A DNA stretch of 54,818 bases from Nocardioidaceae bacterium (lineage in GTDB: Bacteria > Actinomycetota > Actinomycetes > Propionibacteriales > Nocardioidaceae): NCBI GenBank assembly GCA_013696555.1, contig JACCYJ010000093.1:1-54818 (forward strand), in the 5' to 3' direction. Positions 47,747-54,818 of the stretch are shown here, in pieces (position 1 is the first letter of the stretch; each line of letters opens with the position of its first letter). The position numbers and the translations under genes were made by a program. Under the pieces are notes generated by a model. The model searched no databases. It had not been told where the DNA came from and was given only the letters and a program-made list of their open reading frames with translations.

Positions 47747-47789
47747 CAGCTGTTGCTACGGTGACCCCTCCCCGGAGGGTGCACCTACC

Positions 47790-48553
47790 ATGCATGAGCT
47801 GGCGATCACCCAAAGCATCGTCGACGCCGTGACGGACCAAACCGCCGGCGCCACGGTGGCGGCCGTCCACGTGCGGGTCGGCCGGCTTTCCGGGGTGCTG
47901 CCCGACGCCATGAGGTTCTGCTTCGAAGTCGTCGAGGCCGCCCGTCTGGAGAGGACCTGGACGTCCGCATCGCCGCTGCAGCCGGCATCAACGACCCGCT
48001 GGATGAACGGGTCGTCGAGGCCTACTGGATCGGCAACGACCTGTTGGCCGCGGTCGATCCCGCCGACTGCATTGCGCAGCTGCGGTCCCGCTTCGCCGGC
48101 CAGGTGACCAGCGGGCTGGAATCGGTGGTGGAGGCGGTCCCGCACCACAGCTTCCACGTGTTCACGGTGTATCCGTGGGTCGCGATGCTCGGGCGGGGTC
48201 GGGACGCTGTCGCGCTGTCGGTGCTGGAGCAGTGCCGGATCCGATGGGGCACGGTGACCGCTGTGGCGGAGGAGCGCGCAACGGTGGTCTCCGAGCCGCT
48301 GACCTACGTCGATGGCGAGCTGGTGCTGGGCCCTGAGCGCGAGGAGTCGGTGCGGTGGTCGACCGGCGGCAGCTCCCTGGTGCGCGAGCTCGTCGACGGT
48401 GACCTGGTCGCCCTCCACTGGGACTGGGTCTGCGACACCCTCGACCCGGGGCAACTCGAAGCCCTCCGCCGCTGGAGCGCTCATCGATTGGCGCCTTCCG
48501 GCGAGCCGCATCGGCGTGTCGGCGACCGCTTGGCGCCAAACGACGGAGGTTAG
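47790..48553 (+). pseudogene. Chimeric relic: hypA 5' fragment (about 53 codons, frame 0) joined out of frame to the 3' two-thirds of a DUF6390-like gene (frame 2)
   Basis: MHELAITQSIVDAV..VHVRVGRLSGVLPDAMRFCFEVVEAA is a HypA N-terminus, and the Zn/Ni-binding CxxC part is absent. From about 47948, frame 2 reads EDLDVRIAAAAGINDPLDERVVEAYWIGN.., which aligns with residues about 70 onward of the 34446 paralog. The last about 22 codons and the stop come from repeat copy 4. Confidence 0.65.
48484..48547 (+). repeat. 63-nt dispersed repeat, copy 4
   Basis: tcgattGGCGCCTTCCGGCGAGCCGCATCGGCGTGTCGGCGACCGCTTGGCGCCAAACGACGg. Lies inside the 3' end of the 48044..48553 ORF. Confidence 0.85.
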
Positions 48554-48563
48554 GTCGCGGGAG

Positions 48564-50072
48564 CTAGCGCAGTGACGTGACCGTACGCAGCTCGGCGACC
48601 GCGGCTGCGTACGCCTCCTCGTACCTGCTTGCCCCTGCTTGCTCCAGTGCGTGCAGCCGACCGAAGCCGAAGGCCACCGCGGTGGAGGTGGCCTCCCTTC
48701 CGAGCCGCTCGTACCATTCGCGCGCTACCACGCTGTCTTGGTGGTTGCCGAGTGCCTTCTGCACCGCCTGCGCCCGGGCCCGGAGCTGGTCGGCCGGCTT
48801 GCCCAACGTCGGTTCGGCCATCTCGGCGGCGTACCGCAGCCGTTTGGCGGCCTTGCGTACGGCGTGCAGCGCCTCGTCGTGCGCGGTGCCGCCAGCCTCG
48901 TCAGCGGCGGCGACCCTCTTGGCGAAGCGCCGCCACGTCTTCGCGATGCGTCGGTCGAGGACCTTCTTTGCTCCTTTGGCCGCCTTGTCGGTGAAGGGCG
49001 GATCAGCGAGCAGGGATTTCAACGACGCCCGCAGCTCGATGTGCCGCCGCGAGTCGAGTGCCTCTCGCGCGCGGCGCATCGCCGCACGTTCATCCGTCCG
49101 CAATGCGGAGCGCACCGGGGTCGACATTGCTCGCACCGCGACCGGTGACTGCTCGGCGGCCACGGCCTCGAGCAGCCGTTCGCGCATCACCTCGAGATCA
49201 CGGACTTCGCTGAGCTCCTGGCCGAGCCAGCGCAGCTCGGACTCGAGATGACGAGCCGTGTCCTTGTCGAGCAGTGGGCGGGAGACCGCCAGTGCGCTGC
49301 GCAGCCGGCGGGCCGTGATGCGCATCTGGTGCTCACCGTCATGCAGGCCCAGCCGCACCTCCACCTCGCGGTCGGCGAGGCGCTCGGACTGCAGCGCGAG
49401 GTAGTCCCACAGCGCCGTTCCGGCTGCACGCCGCCGAAGGCCTTCCGGGCGGATGTGTCGCGGCGGCAAGTCGTTGCCCAATGCTCTGCGCAGCTTTGAC
49501 TGATGATCGGCTACCCGGCCACCCGCATCGGTGAGCCGCTCGCTCACCCGCTCGAGCAGGTCGGCATCGCCACCGGTGAGCTCGACCTCGACCTCCCGCC
49601 AGCTCTGCACGGCGGCCGGATCGTCACCTGGTCGATCAAGCCGGGTCACGTCAACCTGGTCGTCGCAGACCTCCGCGACCGCCAACTGGTCGGTGCCGAC
49701 AAGGACATGCACGGTGCGTGTCGTGCGTACCTCCACCACCTTGCGCAGCTCGGCTCCGAGGATGAGCGAAGACACGGCACGCCGGAGCGGGAGCGGGACC
49801 GTCGTCCCTCGACCGAGCGGTCGATGCACCTCCCGACGCTGATCGGTGCCTGCCGGGAGCTTCAGGTGCCAGCCGCCGTCGGTGCCACCCTGGCGGCGAC
49901 GCAGTGTCACATGGGCCCGCGCCAGCGCGAAGTCGGCGGTGTCGGAGTACGTCGCCACCAGCTCGATGGTCAGCGGAGCGGCCACCACCGTTGCCGCAGG
50001 AACGGTCAGGTCGGGGAGCACGATGCCGTCGGGCAGCTCGAACGTTCGCTCGATCTCGACGAACGTCTCCAT
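48564..50072 (-). CDS. CYTH + CHAD domain protein (triphosphate tunnel metalloenzyme with polyphosphate-associated domain)
   Basis: METFVEIERTF (CYTH ExExK-like start), then a long His/Arg/Lys-rich helical CHAD region (HQMRITARRLRSAL, HAVRKAAKRLRYAAE). ATG at 50072. Confidence 0.85.
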   Translation of the reverse strand: METFVEIERTFELPDGIVLPDLTVPAATVVAAPLTIELVATYSDTADFALARAHVTLRRRQGGTDGGWHLKLPAGTDQRREVHRPLGRGTTVPLPLRRAVSSLILGAELRKVVEVRTTRTVHVLVGTDQLAVAEVCDDQVDVTRLDRPGDDPAAVQSWREVEVELTGGDADLLERVSERLTDAGGRVADHQSKLRRALGNDLPPRHIRPEGLRRRAAGTALWDYLALQSERLADREVEVRLGLHDGEHQMRITARRLRSALAVSRPLLDKDTARHLESELRWLGQELSEVRDLEVMRERLLEAVAAEQSPVAVRAMSTPVRSALRTDERAAMRRAREALDSRRHIELRASLKSLLADPPFTDKAAKGAKKVLDRRIAKTWRRFAKRVAAADEAGGTAHDEALHAVRKAAKRLRYAAEMAEPTLGKPADQLRARAQAVQKALGNHQDSVVAREWYERLGREATSTAVAFGFGRLHALEQAGASRYEEAYAAAVAELRTVTSLR

Positions 50073-50083
50073 CCCGGCCGAGG

Positions 50084-51439
50084 TCACGTCAGCGCCGCCA
50101 GCGCGGTCTCGATCGCACGGTGAAAGGTCGGGTACGCCCACATCGAGTGACGCAGTGTCGCGACCGGCACTTCGGCACGGACCGCCACCGCAAGGGCGCC
50201 GAGGATCTCGCCACCGTACGGGCCGGCGCTCGTGGCCCCGACGAGCACACCGCGGTCGATGTCCTCGACCACCTTGATGAAGCCGTCGTTGCCAGGACCG
50301 TGCACATGGCCGCGGGCGGCTTCCGGAAGCGGCGCCGTCCCGGTGCGCACGGACAGCCCCGCCGTCTTGGCTTGTTTCTCGGTTATGCCGACGGCACCGA
50401 CTTCGGGATCGGTGAACGTGACCCGTGGCAGAGCGGCGTAGTCGGCCCCCGGACCCTCCTCGCCGAGGATGTCTCGGGTCGCGATGGCCGCCTGATACAT
50501 GGACACATGCGTGAAGGCCCCCTTGCCGGTGACGTCACCGATTGCCCAGATGCCGTCGGTGACCCGTAAGTGGTCGTCGACTTCGAGAAACCGCTCCGAC
50601 GCATCAACGCCCACTGAGTCGAGCCCGAGATCTTTCAACCGTGCACTGCGTCCGGTGGCCACCAGCAGCGTGTCGCCATGCAGCTCGTCACCCCCGTCGA
50701 GGGTCAGCGTAAACGTGCCATCTTCGTGCGCCACCGACGTGGTGTTGGCATCGCTGACCACCCGGATGTTTTCTCGCTCGAACACCTCCGCCAGCAGGCG
50801 ACCAGCCTCCGGTTCCTCGACCGCCAACAAATTCGGCCCGTTCTCGATCACCGTGACCTTGCTGCCGAACCGGGCGTACAGCTGCGCCAGCTCGACACCG
50901 ATCGCGCCGCCACCGAGCACGACGAGCGACCGGGGCACCGTACGCGCCTCGATCGCCTCCCGGTTGGTCCAGTACGGCACGTCGGCCAGCCCGGGTATGG
51001 GTGGGATCGCCGCAGACGTACCGGGGTTGAGCACGATGGCGCGACCCGCGTCGAAGCTCTCCCCGTCGACACTGACCCGGCCGGGGCCGGTGATGGTGCC
51101 GACGCCCTTGACCACCCTGCAACCGCGGCCCTCCAGCCGCTCGACAGCCGCGGTGTCGTCCCAATCGGCTGTGAGCTCTCGCACTCGCTTCGCGACCGGT
51201 CCCCAGTCGGCTTGGACTTGCGCACTGCCGGCCAGGTCACGGACGCGCCGCGCCTCGGCCAGGACATCGCCCGAGCGAATCATGGCTTTCGACGGGATGC
51301 ATCCCCAGTAGGGGCACTCGCCCCCGACGAGTTGCCGCTCCACCGCGACCACATCGAGTCCAGCGTCGCCGAGCCGCCCGGCCAAGTCTTCGCCACCGGG
51401 GCCAAGGCCAATCACGACGGCGTCAACGGACGTCGCCAT
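50084..51439 (-). CDS. Class I pyridine nucleotide-disulfide oxidoreductase (dihydrolipoyl dehydrogenase / mycothione reductase-like)
   Basis: VVIGLGPGGEDLA (FAD), redox-active GGECPYWGCIPSK (CxxxxC), VVLGGGAIGVELA (NAD), C-terminal dimerisation domain. Confidence 0.85.
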   Translation of the reverse strand: MATSVDAVVIGLGPGGEDLAGRLGDAGLDVVAVERQLVGGECPYWGCIPSKAMIRSGDVLAEARRVRDLAGSAQVQADWGPVAKRVRELTADWDDTAAVERLEGRGCRVVKGVGTITGPGRVSVDGESFDAGRAIVLNPGTSAAIPPIPGLADVPYWTNREAIEARTVPRSLVVLGGGAIGVELAQLYARFGSKVTVIENGPNLLAVEEPEAGRLLAEVFERENIRVVSDANTTSVAHEDGTFTLTLDGGDELHGDTLLVATGRSARLKDLGLDSVGVDASERFLEVDDHLRVTDGIWAIGDVTGKGAFTHVSMYQAAIATRDILGEEGPGADYAALPRVTFTDPEVGAVGITEKQAKTAGLSVRTGTAPLPEAARGHVHGPGNDGFIKVVEDIDRGVLVGATSAGPYGGEILGALAVAVRAEVPVATLRHSMWAYPTFHRAIETALAALT

Positions 51440-51440
51440 G

Positions 51441-54233
51441 TCAGAGCTTCAGCCCGACGTACTTCGTCTCCAGGTACTCCTCGATGCCTTCGGCCCCACC
51501 CTCGCGGCCGAAGCCGCTCGCCTTGACCCCACCGAACGGCGCCGACGGGTTGGAGACGATGCCCTGATTGAGTCCGACCATGCCGGTCTCGAGTCGCTCC
51601 GCGACATTCAAAGCGCGCGAGACGTCACGGGTGAAGGCATAGGCGACCAGACCAAACTCGGTGTCGTTGGCCATGGCGACCGCTTCGTCGTCGTCGGCGA
51701 ACGTGAACACAGGAGCCACCGGTCCGAAGATCTCCTCCCGGAACATTCGGGCTCTCGGCGGCACGTCGGAGAGCACCGTGGGGGTGTAGAACCAGCCGGT
51801 ACGATCCGGCGCGCTCCCGCCTGTGGCGACGGTTGCGCCGGCCTCGACTGCGTCATCGACCAGCTCACCGACCTTGTCGCGCTGCTTTTCCTCCACGAGT
51901 GGACCGACGTCGACGCCGTCATCGGTGCCGCGGCCCACACGGAGGTCGGACATCCGCTGCGCCAGCTTGGTAGTGAACTCATCGGCGAGCGATTCGTGCA
52001 CGAGGAAGCGGTTGGCCGCGGTGCACGCCTCACCGACGTTGCGCATCTTGGCGAGCATGGCGCCCTCAACGGCGGCGTCGACGTCAGCGTCGGCGAAGAC
52101 CAGGAACGGTGCGTTGCCGCCGAGCTCCATCGAGACCCGAAGCAGTCCTTGAGCCGATTGCGCTACCAACGTGCGGCCCACCTCGGTCGAGCCGGTGAAC
52201 GTCAGCTTGCGCAGTCGCGGGTCGCGGATCAGCGGCTCCATCACCTTCCCGGTCGACGAGGTGGTGAGGACGTTGAGTACACCGGGTGGCAGACCGGCCT
52301 GCGTGAGGATGTCGGCGAGCGCCAGCATGCTCAACGGTGTAAGGGCTGCCGGTTTGATCACCATGGTGCAGCCGGCCGCAACGGCGGGACCGATCTTGCG
52401 GGTCCCCATCGCCAGTGGGAAGTTCCAGGGGGTGATCATCAGGCACGGGCCGACTGGCTGCTTCATCGTCAGCAACCGAGTCGCTCCGTTAGGGGCCACA
52501 GAGTAGCGCCCCGCGATGCGTACCGCCTCTTCGGAGAACCACCGGAAGAACTCCGCACCGTAGGTGATCTCGGACTTGGACTCCTTGAGCGGTTTGCCCA
52601 TCTCCAGGGTCATGAGCAGCGCCAGGTCATCGGCACGCTCGGTGATGAGCTCGTACGCGCGACGCAGGATCTCACCGCGGTCGCGCGGGGGAGTGGCCGC
52701 CCATGTTGGTGCTGCAGCCACGGCAGCGTCCAGCGCAGCGGTGCCGTCGGCGACACTTGCATCGGCCACCTCGGCGATCACCTCGGTCGTCGCGGGGTCC
52801 TCGACACTCAGCTGCCGGCCGTCCTCGGCCGATCGCCAGTCACCGCCGATGAAGAGCCCGGTGGGGACGGCGTCGACCACCTTCGCCTCGTGACCGTCCA
52901 ACCCGGCGAGGGCGCCCATGGGGTCCCAGGCTGGCAACACGATCGGCTCGACGTCGAGCGCTGCCTGCAGCTCCTCGGACAGCACGTCGCGGCTAACCGC
53001 GATCTCGAAGACGTGCTCACCGAACCAGCTGTCGTTCATCGTCCAGTAGCCCTTGTCGGCCTTCTCGTCGCCCCAGCTGTTCTCGACGCGCCAACGGCGG
53101 GCGAGCCCATCGACGACGTCGACGCCGGTGAAGAGCATGGCGTGGGTCATCAGCGTCTCGTGGTGCACGAGCCGCTCGGCCTTCGTCATGGACAGATCGG
53201 CGTCATACACAGCGCTGTAGTCGTAGAGGCCGGCATCCCATAAACCCAACTCGAGGTTGGACATCTTGTCGGTGTCGCAGCCGAACCAGACCGGCTCCCC
53301 GCCGGTGATCGCATCACGCGCCAGCGATTTCATCAGATCCATCTCGACGTTGAGATAGACCACGGGAGGCGCACCGACGACGTTGCCGAGGTACTCCACG
53401 GTGTACGTCTGCCCGACTCTGCTGCTCGCGCGTGGGTCGTGGACGATGCACACGTAGTCGTCGAGCGGGATCGTGATGTAGCGCTCGGCGAACTCCTGCG
53501 GGGTCAGCTCGCCGTCACGGTGAAAGCCACGGTCCTTGTCCATCCACTGCCACCAGAACCGCTCCGGCGGGGTGCCGAGGTGGATGGCGAGAATGCGGTA
53601 CACCGCGGCCACCGCTTCGGACTTCGCCTCCCGCAGCTGCTCGGCGTCCTCGCCGGCGGCGGCGCGGGCGCGCAGATCGCGAGCGGCACGGCGCAACACC
53701 CGCCCCAGCCCGCGATTCATCCGGTGGGTCTCTGCCGACGACTGGGTCTCGGGCATCGCGACCTTGGGCACCAGGCCGTGCTTACGTACCAGGGCGACAA
53801 ACATGTTCCACTGCCCACCGTCGTCGGTAGGTGCATTGAGCAAGTGCGCCACGGTGCGGTCGTCGACATCGCGTTCTGCGGTCTCGATCATGGCCTCGAG
53901 CCAGTGGTTGGCCTTCTCGAGCTTGTCCCAGAACAGCAGATAGTTCTGGCTGAACTCGAAGTCCTTGAGGCCCATGCGTTGGGCAGCACCCACCCGGAGC
54001 AGGTTGAGTCCGGCGAAAAGCCAACACCGGCCACTCTTCTTCTGGTTGGTGACCCCCCAGTCGTCAAGCAGGTGTGAGACCGAGTGATCGATCGATGTCA
54101 CGACAGCGCGATCGAGAGCCACGTCGTCGATCGACGTCTTGGTGACGGCGTTCTGTGCCAGCCGATAGGCCGGGTTCGCCGCGAACTCCTTGGCGAATCT
54201 CTCGAGCTCGGGGCTGCTCAGAGCACGTTCCAT
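51441..54233 (-). CDS. Single ORF fusing aminopeptidase C (C1-like/bleomycin hydrolase family, residues 1 to about 443) to NAD(P)-dependent succinate-semialdehyde dehydrogenase (residues about 452 to 930)
   Basis: PepC part: QKKSGRCWLFAGLN (catalytic Cys), ending in the family C-terminus VLPAWDPMGALA. No stop follows. After GLDGHEAK comes VVDAVPTGLFIGGDWR.., with ALDH motifs ELGGNAP and GEACTAANR. An in-frame GTG at 52880 preceded by GAGG could also start gabD separately. Confidence 0.8.
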   Translation of the reverse strand: MERALSSPELERFAKEFAANPAYRLAQNAVTKTSIDDVALDRAVVTSIDHSVSHLLDDWGVTNQKKSGRCWLFAGLNLLRVGAAQRMGLKDFEFSQNYLLFWDKLEKANHWLEAMIETAERDVDDRTVAHLLNAPTDDGGQWNMFVALVRKHGLVPKVAMPETQSSAETHRMNRGLGRVLRRAARDLRARAAAGEDAEQLREAKSEAVAAVYRILAIHLGTPPERFWWQWMDKDRGFHRDGELTPQEFAERYITIPLDDYVCIVHDPRASSRVGQTYTVEYLGNVVGAPPVVYLNVEMDLMKSLARDAITGGEPVWFGCDTDKMSNLELGLWDAGLYDYSAVYDADLSMTKAERLVHHETLMTHAMLFTGVDVVDGLARRWRVENSWGDEKADKGYWTMNDSWFGEHVFEIAVSRDVLSEELQAALDVEPIVLPAWDPMGALAGLDGHEAKVVDAVPTGLFIGGDWRSAEDGRQLSVEDPATTEVIAEVADASVADGTAALDAAVAAAPTWAATPPRDRGEILRRAYELITERADDLALLMTLEMGKPLKESKSEITYGAEFFRWFSEEAVRIAGRYSVAPNGATRLLTMKQPVGPCLMITPWNFPLAMGTRKIGPAVAAGCTMVIKPAALTPLSMLALADILTQAGLPPGVLNVLTTSSTGKVMEPLIRDPRLRKLTFTGSTEVGRTLVAQSAQGLLRVSMELGGNAPFLVFADADVDAAVEGAMLAKMRNVGEACTAANRFLVHESLADEFTTKLAQRMSDLRVGRGTDDGVDVGPLVEEKQRDKVGELVDDAVEAGATVATGGSAPDRTGWFYTPTVLSDVPPRARMFREEIFGPVAPVFTFADDDEAVAMANDTEFGLVAYAFTRDVSRALNVAERLETGMVGLNQGIVSNPSAPFGGVKASGFGREGGAEGIEEYLETKYVGLKL

Positions 54234-54389
54234 TCAAGGCCTCCGGACGTCTGGACGGTCAACTCGCTGAGCGTACGCCAGAGCCACGATCGGCCGACGG
54301 AGAGTGGCCGGTAGTGGTTTGTCCGCAACTTGTGCACAGCGCCGGTGTGAGTACTCCCGTTGTCAGTGGGTGGGCATAGAATCGTACAC

Positions 54390-54818
54390 ATGTTCGATCT
54401 TATGCGGGACGCAGGCGAGCTGTTCGGTGGCGCTGAACTGCCGAGGACGGCGGAGTCGCAGATTGAGCGGATTGCGGCGTGGGAGCGGGTGATCGCGCAC
54501 GCGCATGCCCAGCAGGCGCGGGTGATCGCCGGTTTCGTGTCCCGACGTGCCGCCGAGGACCGGGCTGCCGGAGTGTGCTCGTCTGATGCGGGTAAGTACG
54601 CGGCGGAGGAGGTTGCGTTGGCCCGCCGGGTCTCGCCGACGTCGGCGGGGCATCAGATCGAGTTTGCGCAGGGGCTGGTTGCGCATCATCCGGCGACGTT
54701 GGCGGCGATGCTGGACGGGGCGATCAGCATGCCCGCGGCCCGAACCGTGGTGTCTGAGTGTGAGGTGCTGGATCCGGTGGCTCGCCGAGTCGTTGACGCT
54801 GCCATCGCACTTGAGGCG
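54390..54818 (+). CDS. DUF222-domain (13E12-repeat / HNH endonuclease family) protein, 3'-partial
   Basis: Manual translation from ATG 54390: MFDLMRDAGELFGGAELPRTAESQIERIAAWERVIAHAHAQQARVIAGF..AEEVALARRVSPTSAGHQIEFAQGLVAHHPATLAAMLDGAISMPAARTV.., the typical DUF222 N-terminal region. The frame is open to the window end and is not in the ORF track. Confidence 0.7.
   Translation, partial: MFDLMRDAGELFGGAELPRTAESQIERIAAWERVIAHAHAQQARVIAGFVSRRAAEDRAAGVCSSDAGKYAAEEVALARRVSPTSAGHQIEFAQGLVAHHPATLAAMLDGAISMPAARTVVSECEVLDPVARRVVDAAIALEA

Follow-up and report, generated by a model that had tools for sequence, protein, structure and literature searches.

The fused pepC::gabD reading frame

On the minus strand of contig JACCYJ010000093.1 from a Nocardioidaceae bacterium (54,818 nt, the whole of which we refer to as the window) lies a single open reading frame (ORF), pepC::gabD, in which an aminopeptidase of the PepC/bleomycin-hydrolase family is followed, without an intervening stop codon, by an aldehyde dehydrogenase of the GabD type. 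The ORF (51441..54233) opens with an ATG at 54233-54231 and runs for 930 codons to a TGA stop. A Shine-Dalgarno sequence, GGAGG at 54240..54244 on the same strand and 7 nt 5′ of this ATG, is the sole clear ribosome-binding site for the fused ORF, and these features establish pepC::gabD as one gene, predicted to give a single 930-residue polypeptide from one ribosome-binding site and one start codon. The initial annotation had described such a 930-codon frame with a PepC part that retains the C-terminus of its family; the frame is as described, and both of its domains match their family profiles over essentially their full length.

Residues 1-443 (52905..54233, minus strand) make up the PepC/bleomycin-hydrolase domain, a member of the C1B peptidases. 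The Pfam profile Peptidase_C1_2 (PF03051) aligns with residues 5-440 over profile positions 2-438 of 438 (E 6e-162), scoring 539.8 bits against a cut-off of 22, and the PDB sequences 4k7c, 1cb5 and 1gcb are matched at E values from 1e-121 to 1e-90. An AlphaFold2 (AF2) model of residues 1-443 has the bleomycin-hydrolase fold, with template modelling (TM) scores of 0.95 to 1cb5 and 0.96 to 4k7c. The papain-type triad is formed by Cys70 (codon 54024..54026, in SGRCW), His364 (53142..53144, in THAM) and Asn385 (53079..53081, in ENSWG), all encoded on the minus strand. The three residues align with those of the human, yeast and Lactobacillus enzymes, Cys70 falling on the SGRCW of human bleomycin hydrolase and Lactobacillus rhamnosus PepW, and they are the same in every fused lineage (Cys70 in 6/6 fused sequences), so that the lack of a triad, which had been named as a refuting condition, does not apply. 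The domain finishes ..VLPAWDPMGALA at residue 443, and its last eight residues are the C-terminal arm WDPMGALA (residues 436-443; 52905..52928, minus strand), identical to the motif of 1cb5 and 4k7c. Ala443 occupies the final residue position of the PDB chains 1cb5 (human), 4k7c (Lactobacillus PepW) and 3gcb (yeast deltaK454). Whereas a C1B chain ends at the arm alanine or within a few residues of it, 487 residues lie beyond Ala443 here: as had been annotated, no stop codon follows GALA and the frame goes on as GLDGHEAKVVDAVPTGLFIGG.

The second half (residues 460-930; 51444..52856, minus strand) is a GabD-like succinate-semialdehyde dehydrogenase (SSADH). The Aldedh profile of Pfam (PF00171) covers residues 466-926 over profile positions 1-461 of 461 (E 6e-166, 553 bits). 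The oxyanion residue Asn604, Lys627, the general base Glu703 and the catalytic Cys737 are all present and invariant among the fused sequences, as befits a member of the Aldedh family, and the top PDB match is E. coli GabD (3jz4, E 1e-156). In its full-length Aldedh domain and its catalytic Cys, Glu and Asn this half resembles 3jz4 and the NAD(P)+-dependent SSADHs of TIGR01780. The SSADH and GabD families are also the top-scoring ones in NCBIfam, though under their curated cut-offs (TIGR01780, 586.8 bits against 646.35; NF008415, 564.7 against 828). The earlier description of a complete GabD-type dehydrogenase therefore holds for the domain and its closest structure but not for the family thresholds, and given scores below the SSADH cut-offs succinate semialdehyde is no more than a presumed substrate. 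Identity to the standalone GabD proteins of neighbouring Nocardioidaceae genera is 75-83% and the N-terminal segment is the same, but unlike them the fused dehydrogenase lacks a start codon and starts at the position that corresponds to their residue 3. Judged by sequence, both halves are thus ordinary members of well-known families, and it is their combination that is unusual.

Distribution and origin of the fusion

A protein search returned four further 930-residue PepC+Aldedh proteins of fusion length that span the junction. The comparison with orthologs for which the initial annotation had called was made by a whole-genome search of 40 relatives: the full-length gene, free of stops, is present in G001 and G002, the other species of the genus, and the remaining 38 carry pepC and gabD separate and unlinked. 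The fusion is accordingly known from two sister-species genomes and three metagenome contigs (L013, L014 and L015), at 79-84% identity and with each copy exactly 930 codons long, and together with the window these fall into five distinct lineages (the window, G001/L013, G002, L014 and L015). All genomes of the fusion-bearing genus are metagenome-derived drafts. A search of 5.8 billion clusters yielded no PepC-Aldedh protein from outside this genus, and adjacent pepC and gabD genes, a possible pre-fusion stage, occur in none of the genomes of the 40 relatives.

Several other candidates were rejected on inspection. A pepC match in G015 that reaches into the linker (query residues 5-459) is a normal gene with a GALAR* end, after which comes a PhoD-like gene, and a 956-aa open frame around the gabD of G015:C85 is spurious, as it overlaps an E2 acyltransferase gene and this gabD stands alone. 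The tblastn matches that extend past GALA in L046, L054, L072, L078 and L085 are ordinary genes with the ends GALAD*, GALAG*, GALAQG* and GALAR*.

The six fused coding sequences align over 2793 columns with zero gaps. Their pairwise synonymous divergence (dS) is 0.55-0.85, and the ratio of nonsynonymous to synonymous divergence (dN/dS) is 0.14-0.20 for the PepC half and 0.11-0.15 for the dehydrogenase half (both by the Nei-Gojobori method). At the junction the codons vary synonymously (e.g. GCC/GCA/GCG, CTC/CTG, TTG/CTC) and the residues are kept; the arm WDPMGALA is likewise kept in all fused lineages although its codons differ synonymously. Maximum-likelihood analysis groups the fused sequences into one clade in the PepC tree and one in the GabD tree (support 99/96 each), with branches no longer than those of the standalone relatives in either tree. 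The PepC clade is nested among Nocardioidaceae sequences; the GabD tree contains few relatives, likewise from Nocardioidaceae. Its in-frame architecture is the same throughout, it originated once and both of its parts are under purifying selection, so that pepC::gabD has the marks of a conserved (Rosetta-stone) fusion. The sequences identify it as a fused gene that was formed a single time, in the ancestor of an uncultured genus of soil-type Nocardioidaceae, and has since been passed on vertically. In G000, G001 and G002 the fusion is the only PF03051 gene. Together with the purifying selection and the intact catalytic residues, its standing as the only PepC gene in these genomes marks both halves, on genomic grounds, as working enzymes. 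The gene should be annotated as a PepC-GabD fusion, and splitting it or flagging it as a frameshift is unwarranted.

The junction itself (residues 444-459, GLDGHEAKVVDAVPTG; 52857..52904, minus strand) had been taken to begin with a separate nine-residue linker, GLDGHEAKV. In fact standalone GabD proteins carry the homologous stretch at their N-terminus; in neighbouring genera they begin with MSLQGHEAEVVAGVSTGLFIGG (G015), MPKLQDREASVV.. (G017), MSLSDREQSVI.. (G018) and MNEPAGNEARVV.. (G012), the fused reading across the join being A-G-LDGHEAKVVDAVPTGLFIGG. Gly444 matches the common one-residue tail of PepC, and from Leu445 onward the sequence corresponds to the native GabD N-terminal region. 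By this alignment the "linker" belongs to GabD itself and corresponds to its N-terminal segment starting near residue 3, so nothing has been inserted and the join is seamless. As standalone pepC genes of Nocardioidaceae often end GALAG*, the join looks like a loss of the pepC stop and the first two gabD codons. In such a model pepC would have lost its stop together with the codon for its one-residue tail, and gabD its two initial codons, after which PepC ..WDPMGALA-G would lead straight into residue 3 of GabD.

Two of the readings initially offered, a sequencing error and a recent loss of the stop codon, can be set aside on this evidence. The window does come from a 300-contig draft genome, which would suit an error of assembly or sequencing, or a recent loss of the stop codon in one strain whose gene is decaying into a pseudogene. 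However, the exact 930-codon architecture recurs in five diverged lineages from independent samples and assemblies with zero indels, which excludes a sequencing error, and the fusion predates divergences of dS 0.55-0.85, has a single old origin in both trees and shows strong purifying selection on both halves and on the junction, which excludes a recent loss; we give such explanations almost no credence. A hidden stop or frameshift at the junction was ruled out as well, as neither of the other two frames contains a stop codon nearby, so that one indel would not bring back a stop directly behind GALA, and no indel occurs there in any of the five lineages. Somewhat less remote, but still improbable, is that GabD is made separately too, or even mainly, from an internal start, leaving the fusion polypeptide minor or irrelevant. 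The GAGG-N5-GTG at 52880 that had been proposed for this purpose is indeed present in the window (GTG 52880-52878, i.e. the Val452 codon at 52878..52880, minus strand), and an in-frame ATG, that of Met439 in WDPMGALA, is found in every lineage. Separate initiation at this GTG is nevertheless unlikely because the codon is not conserved: it is GTG only in the window and L015, GTC in G001, L013 and L014 (three sequences, two lineages) and CTC in G002, so that it is replaced in 3/5 lineages, and in G002 the aligned stretch, which ends at about residue 466, has no in-frame ATG, GTG or TTG after Met439. Met439, for its part, is kept in every PepC through the protein motif and has only a weak GGGA upstream, and a search of the coding strand within the fused ORF gave no promoter-like site. 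Moreover, since PepC has no stop codon, the full fusion would always be translated, even given internal initiation.

Predicted fate of the fused polypeptide

The active sites of C1B peptidases face the interior of a hexameric barrel, which has no room for six 52-kDa domains, and the free C-terminal carboxylate of these enzymes sets their aminopeptidase specificity. The fused PepC resembles the known C1B enzymes (Lactococcus PepC, Lactobacillus PepW 4k7c, yeast Gal6 1gcb and human BLMH 1cb5) in being full-length and in its triad, its WDPMGALA arm and its modelled fold (TM 0.95). It shares with the yeast and human enzymes, and with most actinobacterial homologues, the presence of encoded residues beyond GALA, but differs in that a whole enzyme of 487 residues takes the place of a tail of 0-14 residues. 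With an extension of this size a free C-terminal carboxylate is impossible without endoproteolytic cleavage. The initial argument that a C-terminal fusion should alter PepC activity unless the protein is processed stands, and it is reinforced by the tails of standalone relatives.

Among the 3′ ends of 93 standalone PepC genes, mostly from Actinomycetota, 86 encode a variable tail after GALA: it is a single residue (D, G, R, H, L, Q, E, V, S or W) in 74 genes, two to three residues in 9, and 7, 9 or 14 residues in 3, the other 7 genes ending at GALA itself. The longest tails, found among L012 (G009), L027 (G005) and L094, are of 14 (HRSHGERLSGVSAA), 9 (SSPLGSTDD) and 7 residues (HDRQRDR). In the surveyed actinobacterial PepC sequences a variable, unconstrained tail past the arm is thus the norm, and such tails appear to be tolerated. 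By their PDB chains, human BLMH and yeast Gal6 (454 residues, aligned up to residue 453) have one encoded residue beyond GALA, and the PDB entries labelled C73A/DELTAK454 and C73S/DELE455 are engineered forms without this extra residue that end at GALA. Seen against these sequences the fusion is the extreme end of the PepC tail series, at 487 residues, and the tails on most actinobacterial PepC hint that C-terminal maturation is widespread in bacteria.

Yeast Gal6 reportedly trims its own C-terminal Lys454 by means of its active site. By analogy, the reading we favour, to which we assign a probability of roughly 0.55, is that the invariant arm docks into the PepC cleft and the Ala443-Gly444 bond is cut by the enzyme's own active site, releasing mature PepC and GabD. 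The arm would still enter the active-site cleft as in other C1B enzymes and would thereby place the Ala443-Gly444 bond at Cys70, where Gal6 cuts itself. Self-cleavage after Ala443, in the manner of Gal6 trimming Lys454, would then yield two products: a mature PepC whose free Ala443 carboxylate serves aminopeptidase specificity and hexamer assembly, and a separate GabD starting at Gly444. The fusion would in effect be a small self-releasing two-enzyme polyprotein that ensures 1:1 synthesis. Whether it can be described as a bacterial polyprotein of this kind, in which the endoproteolytic cut of PepC after Ala443 both makes its own specificity-determining C-terminus and frees GabD, is in our estimate evenly balanced. 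In having two enzymes on one chain with a proposed release by the peptidase's own site at its C-terminal boundary, it would recall Rosetta-stone fusions and the viral polyproteins that are released by a papain-like protease; unlike the latter it joins a cellular housekeeping pair with no known pathway link, and its cleavage is only proposed.

The AF2 predictions are loosely compatible with such cleavage. Residues 1-443 modelled alone reach a mean predicted local distance difference test (pLDDT) score of 91.3 and a predicted TM (pTM) score of 0.89, with no region below 50 and the arm at 89-94. In the model of the full fusion the mean pLDDT is 79.9 and the pTM 0.53, and values below 50 occur at 438-446, 49-61 and most of 325-345, as well as at 1-4, 28-30, 733-738 and 891-912. 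The PepC segments 438-446, 49-61 and 325-345 are hence of low confidence in the fusion and confident when PepC is modelled by itself, a pattern that weakly fits a flexible, exposed junction and a clash between arm docking and the continuing chain. Several points nevertheless weigh against cleavage. The drop in AF2 confidence may stem from the shallower PepC alignment of the fusion run (18 rows against 30), and the proposal as a whole draws on sequence and on analogy with Gal6, whose type of processing is, to our knowledge, known only for one terminal residue and not for the release of a folded domain. The junction residues are equally conserved at the N-termini of standalone GabD proteins and so are not evidence for a cleavage site. 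Other C-terminal PepC fusions exist (tandem PepC-PepC and PepC-esterase), which prove that such chains persist but say nothing of the mechanism. Lastly, no specific link, and no clear metabolic reason, suggests itself for joining PepC to GabD beyond a general route from peptide breakdown to the tricarboxylic acid (TCA) cycle.

The chief alternative, a possible though less probable one, is that the protein remains stable and uncleaved, a bifunctional enzyme whose arm has no free carboxylate and whose PepC, permanently tethered to the dehydrogenase, would have oligo- or endopeptidase activity or an assembly other than the hexamer. Of the three initial readings that of a genuine bifunctional enzyme comes closest to this; it is borne out as regards the fused gene. 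The gene-level evidence is equal for the cleaved and the uncleaved protein, natural PepC proteins with C-terminal domains exist, and the 16-residue junction, which is the GabD N-terminal segment, is predicted to contain a helix (447-455 in the AF2 fusion model). Lactococcus PepC deprived of its C-terminal residues is reportedly an oligopeptidase, a precedent for an enzyme that remains active although its arm offers no free carboxylate. On the other hand, the invariance of WDPMGALA in five lineages at a dS of ~0.7 is hard to explain without a canonical role for the arm, and an arm docked in the active cleft would set Ala443-Gly444 at the position where Gal6 is cut. A canonical hexamer, moreover, would leave six 52-kDa domains with no exit from its interior, and the PepC half displays no rate acceleration after the fusion.

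In either case the fusion is of interest as a natural test of the C-terminal-carboxylate rule, since it buries the C1B terminus and yet is kept under purifying selection across the genus. If the proposed cleavage is true, a peptidase would excise itself from a large partner, a new self-processing capacity and possibly a traceless self-cleaving tag, and the self-trimming of yeast and human bleomycin hydrolase, which concerns one residue, would be extended to the freeing of an entire folded domain; the '+1' tails that are near-universal in actinobacterial PepC would then be suggested to be propeptides. If instead the protein stays uncleaved, a C1B enzyme would work without a free arm terminus, probably with another specificity and assembly.

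Other PepC fusions and the gene neighbourhood

A literature search for a PepC-ALDH fusion found no paper, and in the majority of long PepC proteins the extension or fusion partner lies on the N-terminal side, so that the C-terminus stays free. Examples are P0010, P0107 and P0067, in which PepC follows a GT2 glycosyltransferase, a transglycosylase and a 2H phosphoesterase; in all of them the chain ends with the PepC C-terminus, in keeping with the free-carboxylate rule. C-terminal partners occur in the tandem PepC-PepC proteins P0051, P0049 and P0046 (L108:1501-4362; also L109 and L110), which are 949-1033 aa long and come from many contigs and 93 indexed blocks. Their first domain retains the triad, and its WDPMGSLA lies internally, with the linker RCYADAP... 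after it; their second domain keeps the triad but has a divergent end (..WSGLGRFLGARD). By sequence these tandem proteins are another natural case of a buried C1B arm. In P0070 (865 aa, one Logan contig) PepC occupies residues 10-446, ending WDPMGALA, and is followed by ~180 residues and then an esterase (PF00756); as a single occurrence this PepC-esterase may be an assembly artefact. The tandem proteins and P0070 share with pepC::gabD an internal WDPMG(A/S)LA followed by a folded domain, but differ from it in their partners and lineages and in their longer, low-complexity linkers, and none has been characterised.

Immediately downstream of the fusion, a gene for an FAD-dependent pyridine nucleotide-disulfide oxidoreductase (50084..51439, minus strand) is translationally coupled to it through the junction TGA-c-ATG. 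The oxidoreductase gene also directly follows the fusion in G001, G002 and L013; in L014 and L015 a gene at this position is cut by the contig end and has no family on record. In G015 (C15; L016:75-3220) the oxidoreductase gene lies immediately upstream of a standalone pepC, with an ATGA overlap, and not downstream as in the fusion-bearing genus. This is the sole shared synteny, and the linkage of oxidoreductase and pepC may thus be older than the fusion.

The two minus-strand genes past the oxidoreductase in the window, at 48564-50141 and 47756-48511, have no NCBIfam match at E <= 1e-10. On the other side an open-ended ORF at 54360-54818 on the plus strand is divergent from the fusion. This upstream flank varies by lineage: L013 and L014 have a 404-425-aa protein without a Pfam match, and in L013 a DUF222 (13E12-type) gene lies further upstream, past the divergent gene that adjoins the fusion.

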